Shown: positions 13,856 to 63,997 of the stretch, piece by piece | Layout: each line of letters starts with the position of its first letter | Position numbering within the stretch: the first letter of the stretch is position 1 | Virus record (IMG/VR): IMGVR_UViG_3300046804_001058 | Location: 1 to 64,000 of that record | Reading direction: 5' to 3' (one strand) | Source: a virus | Taxonomy: Duplodnaviria > Heunggongvirae > Uroviricota > Caudoviricetes | DNA: 64,000 bases | Position numbers and translations under genes: made by a program | Notes under the pieces: model-generated | Databases searched by the model: none | Told to the model about the DNA's origin: nothing | The model's input: the letters and a program-made list of their open reading frames with translations, nothing else

Positions 13856-13856
13856 T

Positions 13857-14235: not shown

Positions 14236-14243
14236 TTATAAAA

Positions 14244-15347: not shown

Positions 15348-15367
15348 TATTATAAACCAAAATATAA

Positions 15368-17991: not shown

Positions 17992-18003
17992 TTGATAAAA
18001 TAA

Positions 18004-19287: not shown

Positions 19288-19298
19288 AATAAACCAAT

Positions 19299-43500: not shown

Positions 43501-46500
43501 TTAAGAACTTGTTTATATTAGAGAATGGCGAGGCTCAAGTTGGAGACTCTAACTTTGGTACAGCAACTAGACAATTAAGTGCAACGTATACAAGTGCCAT
43601 TATTAATAGCATCAAAACAACTCCTAAGTACTTTACATTTGATAAGAAAGAGAATGCTTTTGTTCCTGTAAGAGATGTTAATGGTGTAGCTGCTATTGAA
43701 GATGTAGATATCAACACTCCAGAAACTCAAAGAAGATTCTTAGGTTCATTAGGTATTAGCTTCACTAAAGATGATTACGAGAACTTAGATGGAGATGATA
43801 AAACAAGATTCCAAGATGCTGTTAAAGGTATTAAGAAGAGTTTTGTAGATGCTAAACGAATCACTACCTTCTCTGGTAAGACATTGTCTATCAAAGGTAG
43901 ATTGATGACACTAGCTGAGTTGAAAGTTAAACTTGCAAACCCAGAGTTTGATAGTACATTCTACAATGTGAATGGTGAGATGACTCAAACGTTCCTTGGT
44001 ACAAATGCTGCTAGTAACTTATTTGATACACTTTCTCAGGTTTCTAATAAGAAAGAGTTAGCAAACACTCCGTATGCATACTTGCTTACAGACTCCTTTG
44101 CTCAGAACTCTACTATATTAAACATGATGTTTGATGTAGAAACTGGTGATAGAATTCAAGGCTCTGAGGAGTTAATGAAAACATCATGGGCTGATGGTAC
44201 ACAAAATGCTACAAATGGTAAGAAGAAATCTTCTGCTAAATTAACATATAAAGAGCGTTTGATCCAAGAGATCAATATGAACTTAGCTGGTTATTATTAT
44301 ACATTAGTTCCAGGTGATGCTTCATTAGAATGGCAAACTTATATGAAGAATGCTATTACTGCTGATCAATTACTTTCTGGGAACGATGCTATATTTGATA
44401 TCTTTAAAGGTTATTTCACATCTGAAATGAACCTAGCTAGAGAGAATCGTCCTACAAAGAATAGCAAAGATTTACGTTTCTTCAAACCTATCTTAGGAGA
44501 CAGCTTACACAATAAGTTGATTGAATTAGAAGGAGCTCCTGAAGTTATCTATGAAAATAATAAAGAGGTTATTGATAAGGCTGTATTAGCATTTATCAAT
44601 AAGAAGACTGAAGGATTCAAAACTAACCTTGAAAAGTATGGTGTAATCACTCCTGGAATGGGACGTCAGACCTGGGAAGTAACAAACTTACAGTTTGCTC
44701 AAGGAGGAACTATATCAGAACAAAACTTAAATAGAGAGTTAACAGCATTGTCAGTTAACTTTATGGTTAACAACATTGAGTTACATAAGTTATTGTTCTC
44801 TGATCCATATCAATATTCTGATGAGTTAAAGCGTATCAAGAACTTCTTATCTCCACGTCAGGCTATTATTTCTAACTCAGCTAATATGAATGATGTATTA
44901 GATAGAGTTTGGAACGCAGGTTATGAAAGAGGAGATATTGGTTACACTGATATGAATCAAGACTTCTTCAGAACTATCACTATGTCTGACGTACTTAGCA
45001 CAAACAAACTTGCTGATTACAGTACTGAGCCTTATGAAGAATCAGATGGTTCTGGTATCATCATGTTTAAATCATACCGTAACTTCAGAATCCGTGCTAA
45101 TGATTGGACAGATGAGAATGAAGAGCAGTACAAATATGATATAGCTTGGGAGAAGAGATTCAAAGGATTGCCTATGTCTGAAGCAGAGAAGACAATCTTG
45201 AAAGGACTTAACCCTAATGTAAAGAGTACATATACATCTATCAAGCCTATTGTTTCTGGTAATAAAGGAAATGGTCAGTCTTACAATGATGTTGTACTAG
45301 ATAAATTTGCATTGTATCCATTATCATTCCGTATTCTACAAGAGATTAATCAGGCTGGTAATAGAGATAACTCTAATGCTGTAGAGCATTATAATAAGAT
45401 GCAAGCTGAGAATATTGACTACAGTGTATTTAAGTCTGGTAGAAAGGTTGGTGCACAAACTCAACATAAGTTGTACAATGAGGATGGATCATTTAATGAT
45501 GCTTCTTATGATGCAACAGGTATAGTTAATATTCCATTTGGCATCATATCTGTACAATCAGAAGTTCCATCTAAAGATGTAGAACTTGTAACTAGAGGTT
45601 CTCAAATCACTAAGTTAGCTACTATGGACTTTATGGAAGCTGGTGTACCTATTGACTTTGAGAAAGGTGGTAATATTAATACTAGATATGAAAAGTGGTT
45701 TAAGTTAACAGAAGATCAAAAGTTAGCTAAATCTAAATTATATAAAGAGATTAAAAATAACCAAGCATTGCTAGGAGCAATGATGGAAGAAGGTTATCAA
45801 AATCTACTTAAACAAATGGGTATTGTTGAAAATGCTGATAATACATTTAGCATTGACAATACAGCTAAGGTGGGAGAAATCTTACGTAAGGAGATTCTTA
45901 AGAGAGAAGTTAATGACAACATTGCTGACGCATTAGCTGGATTCTTGGAAGGTCACACTACTATAGAAGCTACTCCTGCGTATCAGCAAATCAGAAGCAT
46001 TCTTTACTCTATTGCTGATAGAGAGGTTATTAGCCCTAAGATTTCTGGTGGTATGAAGGTACAAATCCCTTCTACATTATTAGAAGAAGTTAGAGGTAAA
46101 GCAACTGATGTTAACGGTAAACAAGCTTACGAGTCTGATGTATTAGATTTTTATACAGATAAGGACGGTAAGCGTGTGTGTGAAATCATGTTAGGTAGAT
46201 GGTTCTATAGTCCAATGAGTGACAAGGACCTACTTGACTACTTGAATAATACAGAAGAAGGTCAAAAGATCTTATCTGGTGTTGGTTTCCGTATCCCTAC
46301 TCAAAAGCAAAACTCTATTGATAGCTTTGTAATCAAACAATTCTTACCTGAAGAGTTTGGAGATAACGTGGTTATTCCTTCAGCATTAGTTAAGAAGGCA
46401 GGTTCTGACTTTGATATTGATAAGTTGTCTGTATACTTAAAGAACGTATATGAAGATGCTGATGGTAATGTGAGACTTGTTCCTTACGTAGGTATGGGAG

Positions 46501-49026: not shown

Positions 49027-52000
49027 ATGGCAAGTTGCCCAAATACAAGTCTTGATTCTTGGAAGAAATTAGTAGAAGATAAAGGAGAGGATGCAGCATA
49101 CTACCTTTGGGATAAGTATGATGGAAACATTCCTGTAGACGCTACTGAAGAGCAATTGGCTGTAAAAGACAAATTGTTTCAAACTAAGAATGAGGTTAAG
49201 AAGGTTACTCTTGATAGTAAGGAAACAGATCCATTGTTGTTAGACTCTGAAGAAGCTAATAATGGATATCAAGTTCAAGATGAAACTGGTAAATGGACAC
49301 CTGTTCTTAAGAGGGTTACTAACAGAGTAAAAGCTTGGTATAAAGAAAAGTTTGGTACAAAGGTATTCAGTCCTCAAGAGCAAGCTTTTAATAATCTAAA
49401 GAGAGACTATGGTATTGCTGGTCATAATGATTTCCAAGAAATCCATGAAAGATATTACTATCCAGATGGAACTAAGAGAGATGTGCCTTTAGCTAGACCT
49501 ACAGAAATCAACTTGCCTTCAATGGATATGTATGACAAGTTGGAGAAGTATTATGTTGATCTTATCAATTCATTCCCAGAAGGAACTAACATCTATTCTG
49601 AGGTGGTGATTTATGATAAGAAAAATAAAGAGGCTGGTACAATTGACTTCTTGGCTGTTGAGCCTTCTGGTAAGGCAAACATCCTAGACTGGAAGTTTAT
49701 GTACATCAACGGTAATGATGTTGCTTGGTTTAAGCAAGGAGCTTTTAATATTCAGATTGGTACATACAAAGAGATGTTACGTACTAACTATGGTATCAAA
49801 GAGTTTGGAATGTTACGTGCTATCCCTATTGCTATGGACTTCCAACTTAAGAACAAACAAGATCCTAAGTTAGGCTATGACCTAAAAGGTATTGCAATTG
49901 GTTCTGTAGATAAAAGCCAGATTGATCCTGTTACAGACTTAAAACTTATCCCTGTATCTGAAGAAACAGAGTCCACTGGATTTGCTGCTTTAGATAAGGT
50001 GTTAAATAATCTGAATGCGTTATACCGTCAGTATAGTAAAGAACAAGTTACTAATGAGGAAGAGCGTCAATTCAAGATAGAAAGACTTAATCAGTTGAAG
50101 AAAGCTGTACGTATTGTACAGGGAACCAACAACTTACAACCTTTAATTGATGTAATTGAGGTTATGAGAAAGGATGGTGATAGAATCATGAATGACTATG
50201 AAGCTATCTACAAAGATAGACCTGCGTCTTCTGATGATTCTACTGATGCTGACTTATCTGACTTTGCTGCAGATATGAACAACTACATCAGATTCTCTGA
50301 GGTGTTCTCTACAATTAGTGATGATATTGGTGACCTAATCTGGAATGCAGAGATGGAATCTGCTGCTACATCTGAAGCAGAGAAAGAGAACATCAAAGCT
50401 AGAAAGGAAATCTTATTTAACTTAGAGAATGAATCTAAGTTAATTAGAAAATCAATTAAGAGTATTACAGAAGCTTCTGAGAAGTTTGCTGATAAACATA
50501 TTGGTGAAAGAAATTTGGTTACAGGTTTGACTAAAGCAGAGGCAGTCGTTAAAGGGCTTGCCTCTAACTTTAGAGGTATTTCTGAATTACCGTTACGTGC
50601 CCTACAAGTGTTATACAAGCTAACTAGAAATGCACAAGGTAAAGCATCTCAAGAATCTCTATCTGAGGTGGAAGAACTTATGGCTATTAGAAAGAAGTTA
50701 GCTGATAGAGGTGGTGATTTAAGAAAGCTTGTGCAGAAGATTTACCAAAAGGATGACTCAGGTAAGTTAGTTAACAAGCTTGTAAAAAAATTCAACTCAG
50801 ACTTCTATGAGCAAGTTGATGAGAAAGCTGCAGCTGGTGGAGATAGAGCTTGGTTAAATGAAAACATTGATGTAGAAGCTTACAAGAAAGAAGCTGAAGC
50901 AATATTAGAAAGACAACTTAGAAACATTGAAAGAAACTCATACGCTGGTAGTGATGAAGAAGTTGAGGATCAAAAACGTAGATATTCTGAAGAAGCTAAA
51001 CGTCTATGGGATATTGATCATAAAGATTTCAATGGTTGGAATAACTACGTAATCAAAAGACATCCATTAGATAAATGGTATTCTAAAGAATATGAGGAGA
51101 TTCAAGCTGATCCAGAATTACTTGAGCTTTATAACTACATTGGTAAAGTGAATGAGAAGGCTAAAGACTTAGGATACATCAACAACATGGTATCTAAGAA
51201 CTTCTTACCATTCATTAGAAAGAGTATGGCTGAGCAGTTAGTTTGGGATAACAAGCTATCTGTAATGAGCAACTTCTACAATAGCTTACAGATTAGAACT
51301 GATGATGCAGGTTATGGTCAGATCAATGAAGTGACTGGTGAATTAGAGAATAGCATTCCTAAATACTACACTACAGACTTTACTAAACAAGAAGATGGTA
51401 CAAATGACTACTCTGATGTGAGTGAAGACTTATTTAAGAACATGATCTTATACGTTCAGCAAGTGAACAAGTATAAGTACATGTCTGAGATTGAAGAGCA
51501 ACTTAAGTTAGTTAAGACTATTGAATCATTTAAGAAACATCTTAACACTAACCGTGTAGGTAATGTTGTTAGAAAAGGTGGTAAGGTAGAAGAACTTCCT
51601 GGTAATGAGGAGAATACAAAGATGTATGATCAGTTCTTACGTGCATTATTATATGAACAAAAGTATGTAATCAACGACTCTGATGTACCTTTGAATATTG
51701 ATAAGGTGTTAAACTTTGTTAAGAAAGGAATTAATAGAGTTGCTGGTAAAGAAGTGTATAAAGAAACTGACTCTACTACTGCTACATCTTTAGTTAAAAC
51801 TATAGACGCTGCTAATAGAGCATTTCAACTAAAAGCTCTTGGATTTGAATTCATCTCTGGTGCTGCCAACATGTTTGGTGGTAATATTCAGATTGCTACA
51901 CAGGCTGGAAACTATTTCAAGGCTAGAGAGTTTTTGAAAAATGAAACAAAACTAATTGGACAGAAGTTTGAAAGCAATGAGGAAAAGGAAATGTTTGTAC

Positions 52001-53277
52001 AATTAGTTAATACATTCATGCCTTTGAAAGATGATCCTACTTATGAGGAGTATAAGAAAGCTGGTATGTCTGCTTTGACAAGACAAAGTTTAGGAGACAC
52101 ATTGATGGTGTTCATGAGAAAACCAGAACATCTTCTTGAGAAAGCAGTGTTTACTACTCTATTAGAAAACGTAATGGTGGAGAATGGTAAGATTGTAAGT
52201 ATCAGAGAATTTGTTAAAGATAAGTATAAGAATAGATATGACTCAGCTTCTGATTTCAAAGACGCTAAAAGCAAAATGGAATCTGAGATTGAAGAACTTA
52301 AGAAGACTAGAGCCATTGCTGTAACTAAAAAATTAGAAGATGGTAAGTTAGTTATTCCTGGTCTTGACTTAACTAATAGAGCTGAGCTTCAAAGACTTAC
52401 AAACTTAACTAGACGTATTTCTAGAAATGCTACTGGAGGTTTGTCTGATGGTGATATCAACAGAATGTCTATGTCTATTTGGACTAAGTCTATGATGTTG
52501 TTCAAGAACTGGATTCCAAAACTAACAGATACTCGTTTCTCTGAGTTTAGAAAGGTGAGTGATGACTTCTCTGTACGTATTAATGAAGATGGTGTAGCTG
52601 AGGGAGAGAAATATGATGTGGGTAGAATTCGTTTACTAGCTTCTGTAATGGCTTCATCATTCCAAGATAAAGCTAATAACTTAATGAACATCATGAAAAT
52701 GAATGATGCTGGTATTGAGAAGTTAAATAAGATGTATGAAGAATACAGAGAGCAATATGAAAATGAGACAGGAGAAGTATTGAATATGACTAGAGAAGAT
52801 TTCATTGACATGATTAGAACTAACCTTCACAATCAGATCAAAGAACTTGCAATGTTAGGAGCTCTTATAGCATCTATGTTTGCTCTAGGATATATGGCTC
52901 CTGATGATGATGAAGATAAAGCTGCAAAGAACTTCCACCGTTTTACATTGAAGACAATGGACAAGTTTGTAAGTGAACTTTCATTCTTCTACAATCCTGT
53001 AAACTACGAGCAATTGTTAAGTGGATCTATGTTCCCAGCTTTAGGTATTGTAGGTGACTATTCTAGATTTATGTCTCACACATTTAGAGAAGTTACAGGG
53101 TTTGACTTTGATCCAAATACATCTGCTGAAGACGTAAGAAAGAAGGCTTATCCATTAAAATATGGTATGAAAGCGTTCCCTGTTTCAAAGTCTATTGTTA
53201 CTTATGCATCTATTCTTAATGCAGAATTTGCTAAAGATAATGATGTAACAATTCAAGCCCAAAGTAACATAAGATAA
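49027..53277 (+). CDS. very large virion protein (1416 aa); weak PD-(D/E)xK-like motif near aa 195-232
   Basis: ORF coupled (TAATATGG) to the giant ORF. 'GTIDFLAVEPSGKANILDWKF' resembles a D...(D/E)xK nuclease core. Confidence 0.4.
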   Translation: MASCPNTSLDSWKKLVEDKGEDAAYYLWDKYDGNIPVDATEEQLAVKDKLFQTKNEVKKVTLDSKETDPLLLDSEEANNGYQVQDETGKWTPVLKRVTNRVKAWYKEKFGTKVFSPQEQAFNNLKRDYGIAGHNDFQEIHERYYYPDGTKRDVPLARPTEINLPSMDMYDKLEKYYVDLINSFPEGTNIYSEVVIYDKKNKEAGTIDFLAVEPSGKANILDWKFMYINGNDVAWFKQGAFNIQIGTYKEMLRTNYGIKEFGMLRAIPIAMDFQLKNKQDPKLGYDLKGIAIGSVDKSQIDPVTDLKLIPVSEETESTGFAALDKVLNNLNALYRQYSKEQVTNEEERQFKIERLNQLKKAVRIVQGTNNLQPLIDVIEVMRKDGDRIMNDYEAIYKDRPASSDDSTDADLSDFAADMNNYIRFSEVFSTISDDIGDLIWNAEMESAATSEAEKENIKARKEILFNLENESKLIRKSIKSITEASEKFADKHIGERNLVTGLTKAEAVVKGLASNFRGISELPLRALQVLYKLTRNAQGKASQESLSEVEELMAIRKKLADRGGDLRKLVQKIYQKDDSGKLVNKLVKKFNSDFYEQVDEKAAAGGDRAWLNENIDVEAYKKEAEAILERQLRNIERNSYAGSDEEVEDQKRRYSEEAKRLWDIDHKDFNGWNNYVIKRHPLDKWYSKEYEEIQADPELLELYNYIGKVNEKAKDLGYINNMVSKNFLPFIRKSMAEQLVWDNKLSVMSNFYNSLQIRTDDAGYGQINEVTGELENSIPKYYTTDFTKQEDGTNDYSDVSEDLFKNMILYVQQVNKYKYMSEIEEQLKLVKTIESFKKHLNTNRVGNVVRKGGKVEELPGNEENTKMYDQFLRALLYEQKYVINDSDVPLNIDKVLNFVKKGINRVAGKEVYKETDSTTATSLVKTIDAANRAFQLKALGFEFISGAANMFGGNIQIATQAGNYFKAREFLKNETKLIGQKFESNEEKEMFVQLVNTFMPLKDDPTYEEYKKAGMSALTRQSLGDTLMVFMRKPEHLLEKAVFTTLLENVMVENGKIVSIREFVKDKYKNRYDSASDFKDAKSKMESEIEELKKTRAIAVTKKLEDGKLVIPGLDLTNRAELQRLTNLTRRISRNATGGLSDGDINRMSMSIWTKSMMLFKNWIPKLTDTRFSEFRKVSDDFSVRINEDGVAEGEKYDVGRIRLLASVMASSFQDKANNLMNIMKMNDAGIEKLNKMYEEYREQYENETGEVLNMTREDFIDMIRTNLHNQIKELAMLGALIASMFALGYMAPDDDEDKAAKNFHRFTLKTMDKFVSELSFFYNPVNYEQLLSGSMFPALGIVGDYSRFMSHTFREVTGFDFDPNTSAEDVRKKAYPLKYGMKAFPVSKSIVTYASILNAEFAKDNDVTIQAQSNIR

Positions 53278-53417: not shown

Positions 53418-55562
53418 ATGAACGTTACTTGTTCTGCAACACCTTCTTGCCCTGTCATACTAGATAGCACCTGCGTATTTTACGAAGGTGCCAATCTTAT
53501 TTATACTGGTATTAACACTAATGACTCTCTACAAACAGCTTTACAAAAAATTGATGAAGCTATTGGTAGTGGAGGCGGCGGTGGTACTGGTGGCACGTCT
53601 GGTACTTCTGGTACTAGTGGTGTAGACGGTTCTTCTGGTATTGCAGGAACGTCAGGAACTAGCGGTGTATCTGGAACTTCAGGTACACGTGGAACGTCTG
53701 GAACAAGTGGTCTGACTGGTACTTCTGGAACTTCTGGAGTTAGTGGAACGTCTGGTACACGTGGTACATCAGGGACTAGTGGAACTTCAGGCACACGTGG
53801 AACATCTGGAACATCAGGTTCTAGTGGATCTTCAGGTTTAAATGGAAGTTCTGGCACTAGTGGTAATTCTGGTACTTCAGGAACAGCAGGTACAAGTGGT
53901 TCAAGTGGTTCTAACGGTTCTAATGGTTCTTCAGGAACAAGTGGATCTTCTGCAACTTCAGGTAGTTCTGGAACTTCAGGTTCAACTGGTACCTCTGGTA
54001 CATCAGGAGTAAATGGTACTAATGGTACAAGTGGCACTTCTGGAATTGATGGAAGTAGTGGTACATCAGGAACTTCTGGTTCAAGTGGAGTGAGTGGTTC
54101 AAGTGGTACGTCAGGAAGCTCAGGAAGCTCAGGAACTAGTGGTATAGATGGAACTTCAGGCTCAAGCGGAACAACAGGAACATCAGGATCGTCTGGTACA
54201 GGTGGTACATCTGGAACTTCAGGAACATCAGGCTTAGATGGCACAAGTGGTACGTCTGGCACTACAGGAACTAGTGGATCTAGTGGAACATCTGGTAGTA
54301 GTGGAACTAGCGGTACTACAGGAACCTCTGGTACTTCTGCAACAAGTGGAACATCAGGCACCACTGGTACATCTGGTTCTTCAGGCACTAGTGGTACATC
54401 AGGAATATCTGGTACATCTGGTACATCTGGTGTAAACGGTGTATCAAATAACTTATTTTTATACCAAGCAGAAACATCTATTCAATCAGGTTATCCTGGT
54501 AATGGTCATGTTCTTTGGAATAATACCACACAAATAAATGCAACACAAATTAATATTAGTCACATTACTAATGGTGGTGTTGACATTGATATATTTTTAG
54601 CATTATTGCAAGAGACTCAACAGATTACTATTCAGGATCAAAGCAATTCAGCCAACTATCAAATTTGGGATATTTCAGGAACTCCAACACAAATTACTAC
54701 TCCTAGTAATTATTGGACAGTTCCAGTTACATTGATATCATCATCTGGTACAGGGTCAACAAACTTCCCTAATAATCAAGATATATTCTTAGCTGTTGTA
54801 TCTCAATCAGGTACATCAGGTACGTCTGGTAATAGTGGTTCTTCTGGTACATCTGGTACTAGTGGCACATCAGGCACATCTGGTACTACAGGAACTAGTG
54901 GTACTTCAGGTTCTAGTGGAACATCTGGTACAACTGGGACATCTGGTTCTAGTGGAACAAGTGGTTCTAGTGGAACAAGTGGAACAACAGGTACAAGTGG
55001 TACATCTGGAATTGATGGCACATCAGGTACTAGTGGAACATCAGGAACTTCAGCTACATCAGGTACTAGTGGAATAGACGGTACGAGTGGAACTTCAGGA
55101 ACAAGTGGTACAACTGGAACTAGTGGTACATCTGGCATTGATGGTACAAGTGGATCATCAGGTACTAGTGGAACGACAGGTACATCTGGTAGTTCAGGTT
55201 CTGATGGTTCTTCAGGTACTTCAGGAAGCTCAGGAACATCAGGCACAAGTGGTAGCTCTACATTATTATATGGTACAAGTGGATCTAGCATACCTATGCC
55301 TACAAGTACTACAACTACCACTACAACAATTGCTTATGATATATATGAAGCTGATGAGTATGATTGTAGCTTATGTACAGTGAGTGCATCTAATGTGCTA
55401 GTAGCATTACCAGCAGGAACAACTCCTAACTATGGTAAGTTCTATGTACCGTCTGCAATTACAGGATTTACATATTTATTACTTGGACCTTCAGCTCCTG
55501 GTGGACCTACAGTAATCTTGACGACAACAAATTATACAACTTGTGGAGCTGCTTGTATATAA
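53418..55562 (+). CDS. collagen-like (Gly-X-Y) tail fibre, second paralogue
   Basis: N-terminal domain similar to ORF 15368 (...[17 protein letters not shown]). Two long GTS/GSS triplet tracts around a globular insert. Poly-Thr linker and a Cys-containing C-terminal domain; no S74 chaperone. Confidence 0.65.
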
Positions 55563-55587
55563 GTTTAAAATATAAAATATAATATAA

Positions 55588-58254
55588 ATGCCTTATTCTA
55601 ATATCACCTTAACAACACAAACTGGGTTATCATTTGTAACTGGAGAATTTATCCAGCTTATACATGATAGTAATAACTACATGTTTGGTCAATTGGTTTC
55701 TTATAATTCTGGTACAGGAAGTTTAACTTTCACTCCAACAAAAGTTGTTGGTAGTGGTACTTATGATACATGGGAAGTAATTGCCTCTGGTTCTGCTGGT
55801 GAAGATGGAACATCTGGTACAAGCGGAACTTCAGGAACTAGTGGTACCTCAGGAACAACTGGTACCTCAGGTACTAGTGCAACTTCTGGTACATCTGGTA
55901 GTACTGGAACTTCTGGAACTTCAGGCACTACTGGTACAAGTGGATCAAGTGGAACTTCTGGTACTACAGGAACTTCTGGTTCTTCTGGTACATCTGCTAC
56001 TTCAGGTACAAATGGTACTGGAGGTACGAGCGGAACTTCAGGTACTTCTGCAACTAGTGGTACAGCTGGTACTTCAGGTACAAGTGCTACAAGTGGAACT
56101 TCAGGTACCAGTGGTACAACTGGCACATCAGGTTCTTCTGGTACTTCTGGAACAAGAGGAACATCTGGTACTTCTGGAACAACAGGAGCAAATGGTACAT
56201 CAGGAACTTCAGGTACGTCTGGTATGACAGTAGGTAGTCCTGCTGTTATTATTGATGGCACAGGTACATGTTCTTCTGTTAGATGTGGTGTAAGTAATAC
56301 AGCATCAGGGTCATTTGCTGCTGCTTTAGGTGGGCAATCAAATCAAGCTCAAGGACTTAACTCATTTACTGGTGGAGGTAACTGCAACAATGTTTGCAAC
56401 TCTACTTCAGGATGTTTAGCATATGGTGCAGTTGTTGTAGGTGGTGTTGGTAACAACACTACTGGTGGTACGTGGTCACTTGCTTCTTGTGCTTTCACTG
56501 TAGCACCAACAGTATGTAATGCTGGCTCAATGTCATTTGTAGGAAGCGGTTTTCAAAATAGAGTATCTGGAGCTTGTTCATCTGTAGTAGGTGGTGCATG
56601 TAATACTGTATCAGGTATTTATTCATTTATAGGTGGGGGGCAATATAATTTAGCTAGTTGTAATTATTCTCTTATTTTAGGAGGTAATTCCAATACAGCA
56701 AGTGGTTTAGTTTCTTCTGTTATAGGAGGAGCTAATAATACTGCAAGTGGACGTCAATCTATTATTGGTGGAGGATACAATAATACTGCTAGTGCATATA
56801 ACTCATTTGTAGGAGGAGGTTATTTAAATTGTGCTACTTCATCCTATTCATTTGTAGGAGGAGGGAGTATTAATTCTAGCAGTGGTATGTATTCCTCTGT
56901 TGTAGGTGGATATAACAATAAAACTACAGGCAGTTATAATATTGTTGGAGGAGGAGTATTCAATAATATTTGTTCTACCTCCGGTTCATTTATTGGAGCA
57001 GGTGCTTGTAATGTTATTTGGCAACCTTATTCATCTATTGGAGGTGGATGTTGTAATTATGTGTCAGGTACAGTTTCATCTATTGGAGGTGGCTTTCTAA
57101 ATAAAATATGTGAGACAACTATATATAATTTTAATATTCCTTGTGGAGCCACAATTAGCGGAGGACAGGAAAGTACAGTTTTGTCATGCTATGGTACAAT
57201 TGGTGGAGGTTATTTTAATTGTGTTGGTTGCACTATATCTGCTAGTTATGCAGGATTAAATTGTCAATATACAGGAGGAAACAATGCTACTATTGGTGGA
57301 GGACAAAGTAACTTAGCTATTACTAATTATTCAGGGATTGGCAGTGGACAAGGTAATAGAATAGGCTGTTTATCTTATAGTGCCTATAGTGGTTGGTACG
57401 GACCTACAATACTTTTTAATTCATTTGGAGATTGTGCATTTATAGGTGGTGGATATAATAATATAATTTGTAGTAACGGCTCATTTATAGGTGGTGGATA
57501 TAATAATATTGCTGCTTTTGGGGGTCATGCTACTATAGGTGGTGGTCAATTTAACATAGCTTGTGGTATTAACTCTTTTGTTGGAGGAGGATTTACTAAC
57601 AAAGCTAGTGGGATTAAATCTAGTGTAGTTGGTGGTGCTTGTAATACTGCTAGTGCATATTATGCTTCTATTGTAGGTGGGTTTTTAAATGTTGCTTCTA
57701 CTAATTATACATTTATTGGAGGTGGTCGTAACAATACAGCTAGTGCTGCTGCTTCAGCAATACTTGGGGGCAACTTTAATACTGTATCAGGACAATATTC
57801 AGGTGCATTTGGATTTGGTGTTGTTAACAGTATTGCTTGTTCTTTTGCATCAAATCAATTATGGGCTTGCAATTTAGTTGGAACAAGTGTTGCGGTTTGC
57901 GTTGGTACAAATGGATTACTTGTTCGTGGAGCATCAGATTGTAGATTAAAGACAAATATATGTGACATTTCTTATGGGTTATGTGATGTCAATAAACTTA
58001 GACCTGTATCTTTTGATTGGAATGAACAAGAAAGAGATAGAAGAGGATGTAATAGACAAGTTGGATTTATTGCTCAGGAAGTTGAACCAATTATACCTGA
58101 AGCTGTAGGACAACAAGCTGATAACGGAGAATATTCATTAAGTCCTGATAAACTTATTCCAATATTAACAAAAGGGTTGCAAGAATTAAGTCAAGAAAAC
58201 GTATCACTTAAAGCAAGGTTGGAAGCCATTGAACAACATCTAAATTTAAAATAA
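55588..58254 (+). CDS. tail fibre: collagen-like tract plus about 14-residue beta-roll (YadA-head-like) repeats plus C-terminal S74 chaperone
   Basis: GTSGTSG tract (about aa 70-212). Then at least 25 degenerate repeats of form S-x-[IV]-[GV]-G-G-x-x-N-x-A-S-G-x (for example SFIGGGQYNLASCN, SVIGGANNTASGRQ). C-terminus '...GASDCRLKTNICD...LQELSQENVSLKARLEAIEQHLNLK' is the chaperone domain. Confidence 0.7.
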   Translation: MPYSNITLTTQTGLSFVTGEFIQLIHDSNNYMFGQLVSYNSGTGSLTFTPTKVVGSGTYDTWEVIASGSAGEDGTSGTSGTSGTSGTSGTTGTSGTSATSGTSGSTGTSGTSGTTGTSGSSGTSGTTGTSGSSGTSATSGTNGTGGTSGTSGTSATSGTAGTSGTSATSGTSGTSGTTGTSGSSGTSGTRGTSGTSGTTGANGTSGTSGTSGMTVGSPAVIIDGTGTCSSVRCGVSNTASGSFAAALGGQSNQAQGLNSFTGGGNCNNVCNSTSGCLAYGAVVVGGVGNNTTGGTWSLASCAFTVAPTVCNAGSMSFVGSGFQNRVSGACSSVVGGACNTVSGIYSFIGGGQYNLASCNYSLILGGNSNTASGLVSSVIGGANNTASGRQSIIGGGYNNTASAYNSFVGGGYLNCATSSYSFVGGGSINSSSGMYSSVVGGYNNKTTGSYNIVGGGVFNNICSTSGSFIGAGACNVIWQPYSSIGGGCCNYVSGTVSSIGGGFLNKICETTIYNFNIPCGATISGGQESTVLSCYGTIGGGYFNCVGCTISASYAGLNCQYTGGNNATIGGGQSNLAITNYSGIGSGQGNRIGCLSYSAYSGWYGPTILFNSFGDCAFIGGGYNNIICSNGSFIGGGYNNIAAFGGHATIGGGQFNIACGINSFVGGGFTNKASGIKSSVVGGACNTASAYYASIVGGFLNVASTNYTFIGGGRNNTASAAASAILGGNFNTVSGQYSGAFGFGVVNSIACSFASNQLWACNLVGTSVAVCVGTNGLLVRGASDCRLKTNICDISYGLCDVNKLRPVSFDWNEQERDRRGCNRQVGFIAQEVEPIIPEAVGQQADNGEYSLSPDKLIPILTKGLQELSQENVSLKARLEAIEQHLNLK

Positions 58255-58258
58255 CATT

Positions 58259-59494
58259 ATGAAAAATATAACAATTGTTGGTGGAGGATTGTCAGGATGG
58301 TTGACAGCATTATATGTAAAAAAGATTCAATTTTCACAAGAAGTTGTAGTTATTGAAAGTTCTGAAATAGGTATATTAGGAGCAGGAGAAGGTTCTGTTC
58401 CTTACTTAAGAAGTATGTTAATTGATTTGTTGGAAATTGACGAATCTATTTTTATTGAAAAAACAAAAAGTACCAAGAAGGCAGCTATAAACTTTGAAAA
58501 TTGGTCAGGTAATGGTACGAAATTTGACCATGATTTTATTGGTAAGAATCGTAAATACAATTCTGATGGCACTCCTGATTATAGTAAATCATATGCCTAT
58601 CATTTTGACGCAAGATTAATTGCTGATTTCTTAAAGAGCATTGCTATTGAGAGAGGTGTTAAAGTTATTGAAGGAGAGGTTGTTGATTTCAATTTAGACA
58701 TAGATAAAAACATTACAAGTATAGTTTTAAAGGACAATGCTGTTGTAGATACAAACTTTGTTTTTGATTGTAGTGGATTTAAGAGATTAATAATAGGAGG
58801 ATTATATAACTCATCTTGGACATCTTATGAAGATCAATTAAAAGTAAATACTGCTGTTCCATTTTTCCTTCCAAGAACTGACAATGAAGAATTTGTAAAG
58901 ACAGATGCAATTGCAATGGGATATGGTTGGATGTGGAAGATTCCTTTACAAGATAGATGGGGTTGTGGATATGTATTTGATAATAATTATATTACAGAAG
59001 CTGAAGCTAAAGATGAAGTCAAGTCTTACTTAGGAATTGATGTATCATTTAATAACACTTTAAGATTTAACTCAGGATGTTTCCAAGAAACTTGGGTAAA
59101 TAATTGTGTTGCAATAGGTTTGAGTTCAGGATTTATGGAGCCATTAGAGGCAACATCTATAATGATTTCAATTTTGCAATTATTTGCATTTCATGAAGAA
59201 GTTTTAAAGGTAGGAATTGATAGATACTCAGAGGTTAGAGATACTTATAATGAATTTATTAGAAGCCTTAATCAAGAATGTATGTTATTTGTTAGGCATC
59301 ATTATGTTTGCGATAAGGAAGATACTGACTTTTGGATTGATTATAAGAATCTACCATTGCCTGAAAAACTTGAAAAATATAAAAGAAACAACTTTGATGA
59401 TATAACTATGTTGCATTATTCAGACAAGAATATTAAACTATTTAATAATTGGAGTTACAAACTTGTAAATAATGGTAACTTTGATTTACAATAA
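58259..59494 (+). CDS. flavin-dependent halogenase (tryptophan halogenase family)
   Basis: N-terminal FAD fold 'ITIVGGGLSGWLTALYV' (compare RebH/PrnA 'IVGGGTAGW'). 'GAGEGSVPYL' matches GxGEATIP. 'KKAAINFENW' aligns with the catalytic-Lys region 'FKAAIKFVNW'. 'GWMWKIPL' is the WxWxIP signature. Starts 4 nt after the fibre stop. Confidence 0.7.
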   Translation: MKNITIVGGGLSGWLTALYVKKIQFSQEVVVIESSEIGILGAGEGSVPYLRSMLIDLLEIDESIFIEKTKSTKKAAINFENWSGNGTKFDHDFIGKNRKYNSDGTPDYSKSYAYHFDARLIADFLKSIAIERGVKVIEGEVVDFNLDIDKNITSIVLKDNAVVDTNFVFDCSGFKRLIIGGLYNSSWTSYEDQLKVNTAVPFFLPRTDNEEFVKTDAIAMGYGWMWKIPLQDRWGCGYVFDNNYITEAEAKDEVKSYLGIDVSFNNTLRFNSGCFQETWVNNCVAIGLSSGFMEPLEATSIMISILQLFAFHEEVLKVGIDRYSEVRDTYNEFIRSLNQECMLFVRHHYVCDKEDTDFWIDYKNLPLPEKLEKYKRNNFDDITMLHYSDKNIKLFNNWSYKLVNNGNFDLQ

Positions 59495-59501
59495 AAATAA
59501 A

Positions 59502-59738
59502 ATGAAGATAGTCAAATTAGAGTTGCTAGAATTTATTGGAGTAGCAATGAGAATCTTTTCATTTAGCATACTAGCAATAATGAGTAAAGATACACCACTT
59601 TTTACAATGTGGGTTATAAATACATTAGATGCAATTCTTTTAACGTATTGTGCGTGGAAGAGGAACAATCGTGCATATGTAGTACTAAATGTATTTTGGC
59701 TTATAGTAGGTATTGTTGGAATGATAAATTCTTTTTAA
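59502..59738 (+). CDS. small hydrophobic membrane protein (2-3 predicted TM helices)
   Basis: The track calls 59472..59738, but ATG 59502 (MKIVKLELLEF...) begins after the halogenase stop. Hydrophobic segments: FIGVAMRIFSFSILAIM and VVLNVFWLIVGIVGMI. Confidence 0.4.
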   Translation: MKIVKLELLEFIGVAMRIFSFSILAIMSKDTPLFTMWVINTLDAILLTYCAWKRNNRAYVVLNVFWLIVGIVGMINSF

Positions 59739-59777
59739 TTTTAAATAATTTTTTAACAAAATATAATACCAAACATC

Positions 59778-59999
59778 ATGGCAGATTTAACAGCCTTAGA
59801 GGCAGAATTAAGAGCAACTCAATTAGAAATTGAATTAGCAAGAAAAGCTAAAATGGAAGCATTTATTGCACAAAGAAAAGCTGAGGAAGAAGCAGCAGCA
59901 GCAGCTGAGGCAGCAAAAACTCCTGAGCAAAAAGCAGCAGAATTGCAAGCTAAAATTGATGAGCATAAAGCTCGTTTAGCTGAATTAAAAGCTGAATAA
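59778..59999 (+). CDS. small Ala/Glu/Lys-rich coiled-coil protein (73 aa)
   Basis: Starts ATGGCAG like many genes here; heptad-like ...LEAELRATQLEIELARKAKMEAF...AAELQAKIDEHKARLAELKAE. Confidence 0.45.
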   Translation: MADLTALEAELRATQLEIELARKAKMEAFIAQRKAEEEAAAAAEAAKTPEQKAAELQAKIDEHKARLAELKAE

Positions 60000-60017
60000 A
60001 AATTTTGTTATTCAAAA

Positions 60018-60051
60018 TAGTTGATTTACCTTTGGGGGATAAAATCAACTA
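60018..60051 (+). promoter_or_regulatory. perfect 10-bp inverted repeat TAGTTGATTT(N14)AAATCAACTA ending 3 nt before the ATG of the GT9 gene
   Basis: Seen directly; no U-tract follows. It would occlude the translation-initiation region if formed in RNA, or could act as an operator. Confidence 0.4.
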
Positions 60052-60054
60052 TAC

Positions 60055-60921
60055 ATGAATATAATATTCCAAATTAATGGCGGTATTGGCAAGGTGATTG
60101 CTGGTACCGCCATTTGTGCTTCTATCAAGGCTAAGTATCCTGATAGTAAACTTATTGTTGTCTCTGGTTATCCAGATGTATTCTTAGGTAATAAGAATGT
60201 TGACAGAGCATACGCTTTTGGACAACAGGCTTATTTCTATAAGGAATACATTGAGAATCAAGAGATTATGGTATTTGCACACGATCCATACTTGGAAGCA
60301 AAGCACATTAAACAAGATGAACACCTTATTGAAACATGGTGTAATTTGTACGGTTTACCAGTGACAAAGACTGTTGGAGAGCTATTTCTTACACAAAGAG
60401 AAATAGATTTCTTTAGCAAAAAATTTGTTTCTGATAAGCCTATTTTTTTGATGCAAACTAATGGTGGTGCTGAGACAGAACAGAAATACTCTTGGGCTAG
60501 AGATATTCCTAGTTATGTGGTAGAAAATGTTATATATGAGTTCAAAGAACGATATAACATTGTTCATATAAAAAGAGAAGATCAAATAGGTTATGATGGG
60601 ACATTTGCTGTATCTGATACATTCAGAGCATTGATTGTTCTTATAAGCCTTAGTGAAAAGAGATTGTTAATGGATAGCTTTGGACAACATGCAGCAGCTG
60701 CTCTTGATAAACCATCCACTGTATTATGGATAGCTAATAGCCCTAAGGTATTTGGTTATGATTTACATACAAACATTGTAGCTAATCCAGAAACGACATC
60801 ACCTGAATTACGTAATGCGTATTTGAGTAAGTATAATATTGGAGGTGACCCTATTGAGTTTCCTTACAATAAAGAGTCTGAAATATTTAATGTAGATGCT
60901 GTAATTAACTCCTTAAAATAA
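60055..60921 (+). CDS. glycosyltransferase family 9-like (heptosyltransferase-fold) protein
   Basis: N-terminus 'MNIIFQINGGIGKVIAGTAICASIKAKYPDSKLIVV' parallels GT9 'KILVIRLSSLGDVILATP..RALK.AYPDAEI'. C-terminal 'LISLSEKRLLMDSFGQHAAAALDKPSTVLW' parallels '[30 protein letters not shown]'. Confidence 0.5.
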   Translation: MNIIFQINGGIGKVIAGTAICASIKAKYPDSKLIVVSGYPDVFLGNKNVDRAYAFGQQAYFYKEYIENQEIMVFAHDPYLEAKHIKQDEHLIETWCNLYGLPVTKTVGELFLTQREIDFFSKKFVSDKPIFLMQTNGGAETEQKYSWARDIPSYVVENVIYEFKERYNIVHIKREDQIGYDGTFAVSDTFRALIVLISLSEKRLLMDSFGQHAAAALDKPSTVLWIANSPKVFGYDLHTNIVANPETTSPELRNAYLSKYNIGGDPIEFPYNKESEIFNVDAVINSLK

Positions 60922-60927
60922 ACCAAC

Positions 60928-61749
60928 ATGGAAAAGATATTCTATCAAAGCTCATTACCTAGAGCAGGAAGTACGTTGTTGCAAAATATACTAGCTCAAA
61001 ATCCTGATATATATGCTACACCTACAAGTGGTGTATTAGAACTTATATTTGGTGCACGTGTTAATTATACAAACTCAGCAGAGTTTAAAGCTCAAGATCC
61101 TGAGTTAATGAAAATAGGATGGCAAGCTTTTGCTAAATCTGGAATGGATGCATTCTACAATGCTATTACAGATAAAAAATATGTGATAGATAAGTCTCGT
61201 GGATGGGGTATTCACTATGATTTCTTACAGTTTGTACAAGGTGGTGAACCTAAAATCATTTGCATGATAAGAGACCTACGTGACATCTTTGCTTCTATGG
61301 AGGGTAATTTTAGAAAGCATCCTGAGAAGCAATCAGACATTTTGGATTGGTCTAAAGGTCAGGGAACAACAGTCCCTAAACGTATAGATATATGGGCATC
61401 ACAGCCACCTGTAGGATTAGCATTAGAAAGATTAAGTGAAATTTTTAGAACTGGCATAGCTGATAAAATATTGTTTGTTAAGTTTGAAGACTTATGTTTA
61501 TATCCTGACACTACAATGATTAAGATATATGACTACTTAGGCATACCACATTTTCAACATGACTTTGATAACATTGAACAAGTTACTAAAGAAGATGATG
61601 AGATATATGGTGCATTTGGAGACCATGTTATTAGAACTAAACTTGAACCTGTAAGAAGCAAGGCGAAAGAGTTATTAGGCAAAGATGTATGTGATTGGAT
61701 ATGGACAAATTATGAATGGTTCTTTAAACAATTTAGATATACAAAATGA
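60928..61749 (+). CDS. sulfotransferase (PAPS-dependent, Sulfotransfer_3-like)
   Basis: 5'-PSB-like 'SLPRAGSTLLQNIL' (compare 'PRSGTTLLEQIL') and 3'-PB-like 'MIRDLRDIFAS' (compare 'RDPRD..VS'). Confidence 0.6.
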   Translation: MEKIFYQSSLPRAGSTLLQNILAQNPDIYATPTSGVLELIFGARVNYTNSAEFKAQDPELMKIGWQAFAKSGMDAFYNAITDKKYVIDKSRGWGIHYDFLQFVQGGEPKIICMIRDLRDIFASMEGNFRKHPEKQSDILDWSKGQGTTVPKRIDIWASQPPVGLALERLSEIFRTGIADKILFVKFEDLCLYPDTTMIKIYDYLGIPHFQHDFDNIEQVTKEDDEIYGAFGDHVIRTKLEPVRSKAKELLGKDVCDWIWTNYEWFFKQFRYTK

Positions 61750-61979
61750 TAGTAGATATCAGGTTTAATACAAATTACCCTGAGAAGAGTAAGTTTGAAT
61801 GGAGGGTGTTGGTAGATGGGAAAGAAAACTTAGTAAATACTATAAGATGTGAAGTTCCTACATATAGCAGCACTACATTTATTGAAGGTCACGGAATGAA
61901 ATGGCACATGAGTGCCATAGCAAATCAAGTGATTATTCAAGAACATATTAATAACGTAATCCACGCACAAATTATATGA
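61746..61979 (+). CDS. hypothetical protein (77 aa)
   Basis: ATGA-coupled ORF between the sulfotransferase and the kinase. Confidence 0.35.
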   Translation: MIVDIRFNTNYPEKSKFEWRVLVDGKENLVNTIRCEVPTYSSTTFIEGHGMKWHMSAIANQVIIQEHINNVIHAQII

Positions 61980-62413
61980 TAGTAGTATTATTTGGTCAGC
62001 CAGCTTCTGGCAAAACCACCTTAGCTAAGAAACTCATAGACAATAACTTTCATCACATAGATGGAGATAGTTTAAGAGATGTATTTAAAAACAAAGACTA
62101 TAGTAGAGAAGGACGTATCAAAAACTTGAATAGAGCTAGTGACATTGCTCACTACTTAGAGTTTATGGAAGGTCGTGATATAGTGTTGTCTTTGGTATAT
62201 CCTTATGAAGAAGCTAGAGAGTATCTTAGAAACTTAAACAAAAAAGCTAGATGGATCTACCTAATATATCAAGAAGATAGAGGTAGAGAACATTACAAAG
62301 TTGAAGACTTTGAAATCCCTCATGTGGACAATGTGGATTTAATTATTAACACTTCACACACTTCAGTAGAAGATAGTGTGGATCAAATCAAGCGTGTATG
62401 CAGAATATTTTAG
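61976..62413 (+). CDS. APS (adenylyl-sulfate) kinase-like P-loop kinase
   Basis: 'VVLFGQPASGKTTLAKKL' P-loop. 'HHIDGDSLRDVF...REGRIKNLNRASDIAHYLEFMEGRDIVLSLVYPYEEAREYLR' parallels CysC 'LDGDNVRHGL...DReENIRRigEVAkLF..aG.iv..afISPy...R...R'. Confidence 0.55.
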   Translation: MIVVLFGQPASGKTTLAKKLIDNNFHHIDGDSLRDVFKNKDYSREGRIKNLNRASDIAHYLEFMEGRDIVLSLVYPYEEAREYLRNLNKKARWIYLIYQEDRGREHYKVEDFEIPHVDNVDLIINTSHTSVEDSVDQIKRVCRIF

Positions 62414-62784
62414 CTAAAGGAAATCGCAAGACAGATGGTTATGCAATGTTCATAGGAAGATGGCAACCCTGGCATGCTGGTCACCAATGGTTAATTGATC
62501 AACAACTAAATCAAGGAAAGAAAGTGCTATTATGTGTAAGAGATGTACACAAGGATGATAAAAATCCTTGGTCTGCTTATGAAATTATGATGAATCTTGC
62601 TAACGAGTTAGAAGATTTAATTGAAGATGGTAAGGTGAGAATAATGATTATACCAGACATTGAGTCTGTAAACTTTGGTAGAGGAGTTGGATATGATATT
62701 ATTGAACACGTACCACCACAAGAAATAAATGATATCTCAGCCACAAATATTAGAGAACAATTAAAGGCTGAAGGGAAGTTATAA
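62398..62784 (+). CDS. cytidylyltransferase-family nucleotidyltransferase, TagD/HldE-domain-II-like (128 aa)
   Basis: 'AMFIGRWQPWHAGHQWLI' is an HxGH motif (compare TagD 'GTFDLLHWGHIKLL'). C-terminal 'ISATNIREQL' matches the conserved 'ISTTKI(K/R)E' motif. Length matches TagD (129 aa). Confidence 0.6.
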   Translation: MQNILAKGNRKTDGYAMFIGRWQPWHAGHQWLIDQQLNQGKKVLLCVRDVHKDDKNPWSAYEIMMNLANELEDLIEDGKVRIMIIPDIESVNFGRGVGYDIIEHVPPQEINDISATNIREQLKAEGKL

Positions 62785-63997
62785 CTTTCTCCGCTGTGAT
62801 ACCCCTATGACATTCAAAATGCTTAGGGGTATTTTTATTTATAGGACACCAGTCCCAGTCCCCTTTATCAAATTTAAAGTTAGGATTGTTCCAACAACCA
62901 TGACATAAAGTTGTATCTGTAACTCTTATACAGTTAGATTGAAACTCATGATCTGCCTCTGTGAAGTTACTAATCATCACTACAGGAGTACCAATAGCCC
63001 ATGCTAACCAGCTAAGTCCACTAGATAATCCTATAAAGAACTTAGCACTTGCTATTACAGACATTGTATTCTCCATAGATGTATCACTAATCTTAATGCA
63101 ATTCTTAAGTGGATTGTCTTCTTTAGATACATTTATCACTGAGTATCCTGAATCATTTAAAAAGTTAATAACTTCCTGCCAACCTTCTCTAGTCCAGAAT
63201 TTACATCCAGCTGTGCTATTGGTAGCAATTGCTACATAAGGAAAGTCCATAGAAGTTATTGGTCTATTAACATAGTTTATTTTAGGTTTTATCTCTTTCC
63301 ATTCTAATCCTAGTATATTACTAGCTGCCTTTTGTAAAGGAATTGTATTACATAACTCTGGTTCTTTATCTGGACTATATCTCCAACCAATAATATATTG
63401 ACCGTGTATATTATTTACTGTAGTTCCTGGAAGAACAAATTCAATTTCTGGATACGCTTCTTTAAACAAGAAGTTCTTATGTGTGCTTAATATAACATGA
63501 CATTTATGTTTCTTTCTAAACTCCTCACAGTATGGTACCCAAGCAATTGTATCTCCTAATGATGCACTATCAATAGAGATGTATACACGCTTACCTTCAT
63601 AGTTTAATGTCTCTTCATAGATGAGCTCACCGTCTTCCCACACTTTGGCTGTCCATTTAGTAAACCACTGTCTATTTAACTTCACCCAACTATTGCTACT
63701 GATTGTATTTTCATAATGACATACACCTGCCTCATCAAAGAACTTAACTAAGAACTTACTATCACTGTTACCTGTAATTTCTAGTCTAGGATTTTCTACA
63801 AACAATAGAGATATATCCACCTTTGTTTTTCTTTTCTTCTTAGGTTTGATAGGAATGAACATTATATTGTTATATAACTCATCATGCTCTTCTGCAAATC
63901 TATTGTCTGGTATATCATAGTGCACTATACCATGTATAAACTTTGATCTAACTTCATCTAGATCAGTATCTACAGGTAGAAGATAGTTAGTAAACAT
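62750..63997 (-). CDS. glycosyltransferase family 9-like protein, convergent; its 3' end overlaps the + strand operon by 35 nt
   Basis: Only minus-strand gene. C-terminal region '...AKFFIGLSSGLSWLAWAIGTPVVMISNFT' parallels the GT9 '[24 protein letters not shown]' motif. The N-terminal about 200 aa are a distinct domain. Confidence 0.5.
   Translation of the reverse strand: MFTNYLLPVDTDLDEVRSKFIHGIVHYDIPDNRFAEEHDELYNNIMFIPIKPKKKRKTKVDISLLFVENPRLEITGNSDSKFLVKFFDEAGVCHYENTISSNSWVKLNRQWFTKWTAKVWEDGELIYEETLNYEGKRVYISIDSASLGDTIAWVPYCEEFRKKHKCHVILSTHKNFLFKEAYPEIEFVLPGTTVNNIHGQYIIGWRYSPDKEPELCNTIPLQKAASNILGLEWKEIKPKINYVNRPITSMDFPYVAIATNSTAGCKFWTREGWQEVINFLNDSGYSVINVSKEDNPLKNCIKISDTSMENTMSVIASAKFFIGLSSGLSWLAWAIGTPVVMISNFTEADHEFQSNCIRVTDTTLCHGCWNNPNFKFDKGDWDWCPINKNTPKHFECHRGITAEKVITSLQPLIVL
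62799..62845 (+). terminator. rho-independent terminator closing the + strand operon (ATACCCCTA ... TAGGGGTAT plus TTTTTATTTAT)
   Basis: Perfect 9-bp stem at 62801-62809 and 62824-62832, 14-nt loop, then a T-run. It lies inside the 3' coding end of the convergent minus-strand gene. Confidence 0.55.

Follow-up and report, generated by a model that had tools for sequence, protein, structure and literature searches.

Tryptophan-type flavin-dependent halogenases (FDHs) such as PrnA, RebH, PyrH and Thal are encoded in antibiotic gene clusters. Genes annotated as 'tryptophan halogenase' are also abundant in aquatic viromes, where they have been noted since 2005. Here, we describe one such gene in a 64,000-nt stretch of tailed-phage DNA (positions 1 to 64,000 of the IMG/VR virus record IMGVR_UViG_3300046804_001058, hereafter the window). 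The gene lies at 58259–59494 on the plus strand, directly behind a pair of fibre genes, and encodes a predicted FDH of 411 aa; unlike the genes of PrnA, RebH, PyrH and Thal, it lies outside any antibiotic gene cluster.

A prnA-like gene in P-SSM2 was regarded as probably non-functional by Sullivan et al. (2005), and a later review counted tryptophan halogenase annotations in 20 of 153 cyanophages. Iyer et al. (2010, 2021) described cyanophage halogenases in dioxygenase–halogenase–carbamoyltransferase tailoring clusters, and proposed collagen-like and tail-collar proteins as substrates of the co-encoded dioxygenases and sulfotransferases. VirX1 from cyanophage Syn10 (PDB 6QGM) is, according to reviews, an iodinating FDH of broad scope with an accessible active site, and the reviews consulted record no natural substrate for it. 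In our searches, halogenase homologs were annotated in 83 phage records, mostly of T4-like cyanophages, and at least 579 IMG/VR contigs encoded relatives. The best homolog in a phage record was gp079 of Pelagibacter phage HTVC008M (39% identity, tblastn), which together with the marine-myovirus family phrog_2928 represents the closest annotated phage homologs. A phage halogenase as such is thus already known, having been annotated since 2005, assigned a PHROG of its own and characterised biochemically and structurally as VirX1; set beside this record and the IMG/VR contigs, the novelty attributed to the gene in a first-pass annotation of the window was overrated.

Like VirX1, the window protein is virus-encoded, belongs to PF04820, has the catalytic lysine and glutamate, and is devoid of Trp4, one of the four tryptophan-contact regions defined by Jeon et al. 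(PMC8269204). VirX1, however, is longer (531 aa) and a more distant match in phmmer searches (E = 2e-43, against 1e-63 for PrnA), whereas the window protein lacks both an insertion and a C-terminal extension; moreover, the VirX1 phage is a T4-like cyanomyovirus and the phage of the window is crAss- and phi4:1-like. The gp079 protein of HTVC008M has 464 aa and is encoded between the terminase subunit genes, next to a 2-oxoglutarate (2OG) oxygenase, in contrast to the window copy with its neighbouring fibre and sulfotransferase genes. With PrnA, RebH, PyrH and Thal the window protein has in common the fold, the GxGxxG, GxGE, WxWxIP and HxF motifs and the equivalents of K79 and E346, but it is without Trp3, Trp4, a lid segment of approximately 55 aa and about 70 C-terminal residues. 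Group C FDHs (BrvH, Xcc4156 and MHal1–4) display Trp1- and Trp2-like motifs and no Trp4, as does the window protein, and act on indole and other arenes, not on tryptophan (PMC8269204). They differ in being bacterial, in their length of ~500–520 aa with both the insertion and the C-terminal extension, and in sharing only 29–36% identity with the window protein.

The halogenase gene and its catalytic site

The gene was recovered as an exact ATG-to-TAA open reading frame (ORF) on the plus strand, as given in the first-pass annotation, and the flavin-dependent halogenase proposed there was borne out by matches far beyond chance. The Pfam profile PF04820 (Trp_halogenase) matched the 411-aa protein with E = 5.6e-95 and 319 bits (cutoff 21 bits), phrog_2928 ('tryptophan halogenase') matched with E = 5e-89, and phmmer searches of the sequences of solved structures gave 1e-63 for PrnA and values below 1e-33 for 30 Trp-halogenase-family sequences. 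A scan against NCBIfam gave no equivalog and only unrelated flavoenzymes, all of them sub-threshold. The ratio of non-synonymous to synonymous substitution rates (dN/dS) was 0.13 in comparison with a 97%-identical relative and 0.21 in comparison with a 64%-identical one, for which dS was near saturation.

Residue conservation was assessed in an alignment of 68 homologs with 42–97% identity. K74, E294, E297, the stretch G41-A42-G43-E44, W224 and F93 were invariant in this set, and G8, G9, G10, G13, H91, W226 and P229 were nearly so. The strings earlier quoted as halogenase signatures were all found in the protein: IVGGGLSGW at residues 6–14, GAGEGSVPYL at 41–50, KKAAINFENW at 73–82 and GWMWKIPL at 223–230. 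The GxGxxG FAD-binding motif (flavin adenine dinucleotide; G8-G-G-L-S-G13) is encoded at 58280–58297, on the plus strand as are the other motifs, and was recognised from the sequence, by regular expression and from homolog conservation. It is followed at 58379–58402 by the second FAD motif or Trp1 region, G41-A-G-E-G-S-V-P48, which aligns with GVGEATIP of PrnA. The catalytic lysine and glutamate, on whose presence the first-pass annotation had made its assignment depend, are both in place and belong to the invariant residues: K74 (codon at 58478–58480) falls on K79 of PrnA in the phmmer alignment, and E297, which lies in the tunnel/halide region F292-M-E-P-L-E297-A-T-S300 (59132–59158), falls on E346. 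The tunnel segment FMEPLEATS fits the pattern FX[DE]PX[EFL].

The WxWxIP motif, to which reviews ascribe the blocking of monooxygenation, was identified in the same manner as the first FAD motif and comprises W224-M-W-K-I-P229 (58928–58945); in the phmmer alignment, GWMWKIPL pairs with GWTWKIPM of PrnA. Assignment of the Trp2 region was based on the alignment of the family profile to PDB sequences, because the single-sequence phmmer alignment was off by a few residues at this point. The profile search paired Y-x-H-x-F of the family with F-Y-H-P-F of AbeH and Th-Hal, and H91-D-F93 (58529–58537) is therefore the equivalent of the indole-stacking H101/F103 pair of PrnA.

An AlphaFold2 model calculated from the 68-homolog alignment had a predicted local distance difference test score (pLDDT) of 92.8 and a predicted TM-score (pTM) of 0.92. 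This confident model superposes on PrnA, RebH, Thal and PyrH. The best 50 matches in a Foldseek search of the PDB were all members of the Trp-halogenase family and nearly all tryptophan halogenases (E ~ 1e-37, TMq 0.83–0.88), with LooH, PrnA, Thal, RebH, PyrH and AbeH among them and TMq values of 0.85–0.88 for the top matches. The best viral structural match was a BFVD entry of 464 residues and 36% identity, taken to be gp079 of HTVC008M on account of the same length and the similar identity. Clustering with non-halogenating monooxygenases was also checked for, and the protein grouped with the halogenases by both sequence and fold. The profile matches, the conserved residues, the fold and the dN/dS values together demonstrate that the gene is real, intact and under purifying selection, and its product is very probably a genuine FDH by predicted activity.

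Missing segments and the short clade

In the 68-sequence alignment, forms of 399–420 aa lacked both a 40–53-aa insertion after residue ~101 and a 45–58-aa C-terminal extension, forms of 492–518 aa carried both, and a few intermediates were seen. Relative to AbeH and Th-Hal, the profile alignment placed a loss of ~55 residues directly after the HxF motif, and the 411-aa protein stops at about PrnA residue 461–470. The remark in the first-pass annotation that the protein has no long C-terminal module was hence correct, and the insertion is missing as well.

The mutagenesis reported in PMC8269204 showed that the ability of an FDH to accept tryptophan, and not indole alone, is determined by Trp4 (PrnA residues 443–461). 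Group C, in which that study places BrvH, VirX1, the Xcc enzymes and MHal1–4, has no Trp4, and FDHs lacking Trp4 halogenated indole. The window protein has a Trp1-like GSVPYL segment and a Trp2-like HDFIG segment. It was not matched by the Trp4 patterns YYxxF[ED][AY]EF[RK]NFW... and [YH]YHG[LF][PE]PYS, even in relaxed form, and was found to be without the Trp3 motif (QxxQ, part of the group B lid insertion). M385 and L386 align with Y443 and Y444 of PrnA, and the equivalent of E450 is not conserved. None of the complete viral-locus homologs collected had a strict or relaxed Trp4 match, and only two of 79 bacterial relatives did, among the matches listed. Given a protein without Trp4 that has also lost its lid insertion and its C-terminal extension, free L-tryptophan is predicted with good confidence not to be the substrate; the first-pass annotation had raised this as a possibility, which the absent Trp4 and the deleted lid and C-terminus now strengthen. 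It would appear that the chemistry and the aromatic stacking platform have been retained, and that the grip on the amino acid and the cover of the site have been lost; judging from the missing segments, the active site is probably open.

A functional analogy is offered by variant B FDHs (CndH, PltA and ChlB4), whose lid-free site admits a carrier-tethered substrate. Their sequence similarity to the window protein is marginal (5buk, E = 8e-7; ChlB4, E = 3e-4), and membership of variant B was rejected, since the catalytic glutamate and the motifs of the Trp-halogenase type are kept and no carrier protein is encoded nearby.

In a search of a large protein database, a single cluster at 98% identity and another at 63% were followed by many proteins of 399–420 aa at 44–52% identity. 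In a neighbour-joining tree of 160 viral or metagenomic and bacterial sequences, the window protein fell in a clade of 27 leaves, every one of them a short form from an IMG/VR or metagenomic contig. The clade itself lies within a virus-only radiation of 69–81 leaves comprising long and short forms, with the bacterial sequences outside. Among the matches listed, short forms made up 22 of the 76 complete IMG/VR genes and none of the 79 bacterial ones, and the closest bacterial relatives were 29–36% identical, all from Proteobacteria, ~500 aa in length and of the group C kind. The short clade is likely restricted to viruses, as far as these sequences indicate, and limited literature searches found no description of the short form. 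The strict pattern W.W.[IV]P is kept in the window protein and in only 8 of the 22 IMG/VR short forms, which suggests that the motif credited with preventing monooxygenation has been relaxed in part of the clade.

The phage, its fibre genes and comparable loci

The window represents a tailed phage, whose plus strand encodes a large terminase, a portal, a major head protein and numerous fibres. The large terminase (2033–4072, +) is closest to that of Leptolyngbya phage Lbo-JY46 (41% identity), followed by the Cellulophaga phages phi4:1 and phi17:2 (33%) and by crAss-like phages (26–29%), and its sequence relates the phage to the crAss-like and phi4:1-like phages, within a sparsely sampled lineage. 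A near-identity DNA search with positions 55000–62000 gave no match among phage records. The fibre genes are immediately preceded by two giant ORFs, one of 3810 aa (37593–49025, +) and one of 1416 aa (49027–53277, +). A PHROG scan returned nothing for either of them, nor was there a significant Pfam match for the 1416-aa ORF; by analogy with crAss-like phages, their products may be packaged in the virion.

Two fibre genes precede the halogenase on the same strand. The first (53418–55562, +) encodes a collagen-like protein of 714 aa (Pfam Collagen, E = 1.5e-56) that also matches tail-fibre PHROGs. The second (55588–58254, +) encodes an 888-aa mosaic with an N-terminal domain, collagen repeats at residues ~66–235, UspA1/YadA-like adhesin repeats and a C-terminal Peptidase_S74 intramolecular chaperone; the head of UspA1, a trimeric autotransporter adhesin, matches residues 317–469 (E = 1e-20) and 647–737. 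Long minus-strand ORFs (53501–54388, 54803–55321 and 55761–56261) and overlapping off-frame plus-strand ORFs within the collagen-repeat regions of the fibre genes are by-products of the codon periodicity of the GXY repeats, not genes. The 888-aa fibre gene ends 4 nt before the halogenase, at whose start no Shine–Dalgarno sequence was evident, and promoter-like or terminator-like sites around the halogenase did not exceed in number those of shuffled sequence. The first-pass annotation had described the halogenase as transcriptionally fused to a fibre gene; what the sequence shows is a shared strand and a 4-nt gap, and co-transcription is no more than possible, the promoter and terminator scans having contributed no signal above the shuffled background.

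Downstream, the island continues on the plus strand with a small membrane protein of 78 aa, a weak match to CBU_0592 (59503–59738). Its likely ATG is at 59503, and the mechanically called ORF starts at 59472, which creates a 23-nt overlap with the 3' end of the halogenase. An Ala/Glu/Lys-rich protein of 73 aa separates it from a 288-aa protein with no assigned function (60055–60921, +) that is conserved in the 98% relatives. Next to the latter is a sulfotransferase of 273 aa (60928–61749, +; Pfam Sulfotransfer_3/_1), followed by a 77-aa ORF and by a P-loop kinase of 145 aa (61976–62413, +) resembling adenosine 5'-phosphosulfate (APS) kinases (Pfam APS_kinase, E = 4e-10; PDB APS kinases, E = 3e-7). 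The adjoining HxGH nucleotidyltransferase of 128 aa (62398–62784, +) carries the motif 'GRWQPWHxGH ... ISxTxIR' of a ~125-aa family and is closest to archaeal-type nicotinamide mononucleotide (NMN) adenylyltransferases. The kinase and the nucleotidyltransferase are each matched by one half of phrog_10255 (230 positions). The possibility that the two form a minimal 3'-phosphoadenosine 5'-phosphosulfate synthase was considered and found no support, as a profile of the nucleotidyltransferase matched NMN adenylyltransferases (E ~ 1e-7) and no ATP sulfurylase; the pair may make 3'-phosphoadenosine 5'-phosphosulfate, NAD or another product.

On the opposite strand, convergent with the island, lies a gene for a 415-aa homolog (62750–63997, −; Pfam Glyco_transf_9) of TibC, the BAHT-family protein O-heptosyltransferase of an E. 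coli autotransporter. The phmmer match to TibC (4rap_A) had E = 1.3e-48 over residues 102–405, including the C-terminal Cys-rich segment. The location of such a homolog by the fibre genes hints at glycosylation of the virion fibres, and the TibC-like enzyme could plausibly use the UspA1-like adhesin repeats as its acceptor; phage homologs of TibC did not turn up in a limited search of the literature. Compared with the cyanophage clusters of Iyer et al., the island is devoid of a 2OG oxygenase and a carbamoyltransferase and instead contains the fibres, the sulfotransferase, the APS-kinase-like gene, the nucleotidyltransferase and the TibC-like glycosyltransferase. Hidden Markov model searches across the 64-kb window detected no 2OG oxygenase or other companions of the myophage type. 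Likewise, no scaffold-building enzymes of the non-ribosomal peptide synthetase (NRPS) or polyketide synthase (PKS) type were present anywhere in the window, and no carrier protein was found among the neighbours.

The order of fibre, halogenase and onward genes is kept in seven contigs of close relatives. In the longest of these (L002, 98% relative; positions 13383–19867, compared with 61976–63997 of the window), additional genes are found between the APS-kinase-like gene and the glycosyltransferase, namely two small ORFs, a CTP_transf_like gene, a PfkB kinase and an epimerase, all absent from the window. These additions look like an ADP-heptose pathway, and the glycosyltransferase of this contig is a 996-aa GT9+GT1 fusion, against 415 aa in the window. 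Even among close relatives, then, the content of the island changes rapidly. In a 63% relative (L006), a sulfotransferase is located directly upstream of the halogenase, with the C-terminus of a fibre farther upstream. The same placement of a sulfotransferase was seen in an unrelated contig (L048, 42% identity), where a carbamoyltransferase, three 2OG oxygenases and two sulfotransferases are followed by the halogenase and a GT1 glycosyltransferase, and the two genes are also linked in the 98% relatives. An unrelated phage that encodes WhiB, and which is for this reason probably an actinophage, carries in succession two collagen-like fibre genes and the genes of a CBM_4_9 carbohydrate-binding protein, a long-form halogenase and a GT2-TPR glycosyltransferase (L042, 3604–10904). 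A halogenase thus closes a cassette of collagen-like fibres here too, independently of the window. Homologs of the CBU_0592-like protein were encountered ~3 kb upstream of a 52%-identical halogenase in two further contigs (L007 and L008).

A wider census covered the neighbourhoods of 94 halogenase loci, and 80 viral (IMG/VR) loci were surveyed for collagen-like ORFs. The commonest neighbours were two families of 2OG-Fe(II) oxygenases (43 and 29 loci) and DUF2061 (28 loci). The APS-kinase-like/nucleotidyltransferase pair was found near the halogenase in approximately 33 of the 94 loci, in unrelated phage lineages, with kinase homologs in 25 loci, and is the only companion common to the lineage of the window and the islands of the myophage type. 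Halogenase contigs of 125–153 kb look like pelagimyophages. Two recurrent neighbours in the myophage-type islands, of 253 and 174 aa, were compared with sulfotransferases by hhalign, and the similarity was confined to a 17–20-residue N-terminal loop with 28–44% probability. Collagen-like ORFs flanked the halogenase only in the window lineage and in one other of the 80 viral loci. The location beside a fibre gene, called unusual in the first-pass annotation, is accordingly uncommon; a halogenase in a phage, on the other hand, is common.

Substrate and role of the halogenase

We infer the catalytic steps from the conserved residues and the modelled fold. Reduced flavin (FADH2) supplied by the host would react with O2 and halide to give hypohalous acid, which would pass through the F292–S300 tunnel to K74 and E297; these residues would then direct electrophilic halogenation onto an electron-rich aromatic ring that stacks against H91 and F93. 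In the reading we tentatively favour, and to which we assign somewhat less than an even chance, the enzyme tailors a bulky macromolecular surface target rather than a free amino acid. The halogenase would belong to a group of tailoring enzymes whose genes immediately follow those of the fibres, and the aromatic group would belong to a surface target made during infection, which may be the phage's own fibre or a glycoconjugate or peptide of the host envelope. This reading is suggested by the homolog of a protein glycosyltransferase in the island, with the adjacent adhesin-like fibre as its plausible acceptor, by the recurrence of the fibre/halogenase/glycosyltransferase arrangement in an unrelated phage, and by the proposal of Iyer et al. 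that collagen-like and tail-collar proteins serve as substrates of tailoring enzymes. The more specific version, in which exposed Trp or Tyr side chains of the fibre are halogenated during virion maturation, with the TibC-like enzyme and the sulfotransferase decorating the same fibre, is unlikely.

A number of points weigh against surface tailoring. No FDH is known to modify a folded structural protein. At most other viral loci, the halogenase is not located by fibres and is surrounded by 2OG-Fe(II) oxygenases, carbamoyltransferases and unknown proteins, and the fibre adjacency in the window may only mean that accessory genes commonly insert where a tail-fibre module ends. Relatives without Trp4, including VirX1, accept small free arenes in vitro. 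Earlier authors read the 2OG/carbamoyltransferase loci as pathways for small molecules and secondary metabolites or for the decoration of polysaccharides and capsules. In addition, the tunnel segment FMEPLEATS deviates from the published motif Fx.Px.Sx.G, having A298 and S300 where the motif has S and G; the viral radiation typically shows this variant, which also occurs in 18 of 79 bacterial relatives among the matches listed.

Almost as probable, given these in vitro activities and locus contents, is that the gene is an auxiliary metabolic one, whose open-site product brominates, iodinates or chlorinates small indole-like or phenolic host metabolites, with sulfation as a possible next step. 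The infected cell or the phage would benefit from the resulting secondary metabolite, toxin or signal, and the proximity of the fibres would be incidental. VirX1, the only viral FDH known to have been characterised, halogenates many free arenes in vitro, indole is a substrate of FDHs without Trp4 (PMC8269204), and the sulfotransferase and the APS-kinase-like gene could equally serve the sulfation of a small molecule. However, the promiscuity of relatives in vitro does not reveal the natural substrate, the 64-kb window holds no NRPS, PKS or 2OG oxygenase, and the island includes the homolog of a dedicated protein glycosyltransferase.

Three further explanations are far less probable. The large deletions relative to the characterised enzymes, the variant tunnel motif and the early view of the P-SSM2 gene as probably non-functional (Sullivan et al. 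2005) would be in line with a halogenase fold turned flavin monooxygenase or with a decaying passenger gene; this is very unlikely in view of the retained catalytic lysine, glutamate and WxWxIP motif, the dN/dS of 0.13–0.21, the confident compact model and the large, diverse short clade. That the lidless enzyme frees HOCl, HOBr or HOI, or halogenates unselectively, as an oxidative weapon or for bulk modification, would agree with the missing substrate-covering elements and with the leakage of hypohalous acid from FDHs, which has been studied for Thal (PMC7948982). It is nonetheless highly improbable, as the conservation of H91, F93 and the catalytic glutamate argues for a bound aromatic substrate, and nothing points to secretion or to protection against self-damage. 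The least probable explanation is that the enzyme provides halotryptophan as a true halogenase of free tryptophan, like PrnA and RebH. Its HxF motif is retained and its best sequence and structure matches are tryptophan 5-, 6- and 7-halogenases, but Trp4 is absent (M385/L386 at the tyrosine positions, the E450 equivalent not conserved), the lid segment is deleted and there is no Trp3.

The enzyme is a short, lidless and apparently virus-restricted structural variant of a known phage accessory gene product, in an uncommon and suggestive context. Its occurrence in a crAss/phi4:1-like phage extends the range of halogenase genes beyond the T4-like cyanophages and pelagiphages, and the copy helps to define a compact clade of ~400 aa that does without both substrate-covering elements, making it a small candidate biocatalyst. 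The context offers the hypothesis that halogenation forms part of the tailoring of surface macromolecules; should surface tailoring prove wrong, the gene would be one more accessory phage gene of a known class. If the phage's own fibre were halogenated, no earlier description of enzymatic protein halogenation in a virus would exist, and the widespread 'tryptophan halogenase' genes of phages would gain a physiological role.

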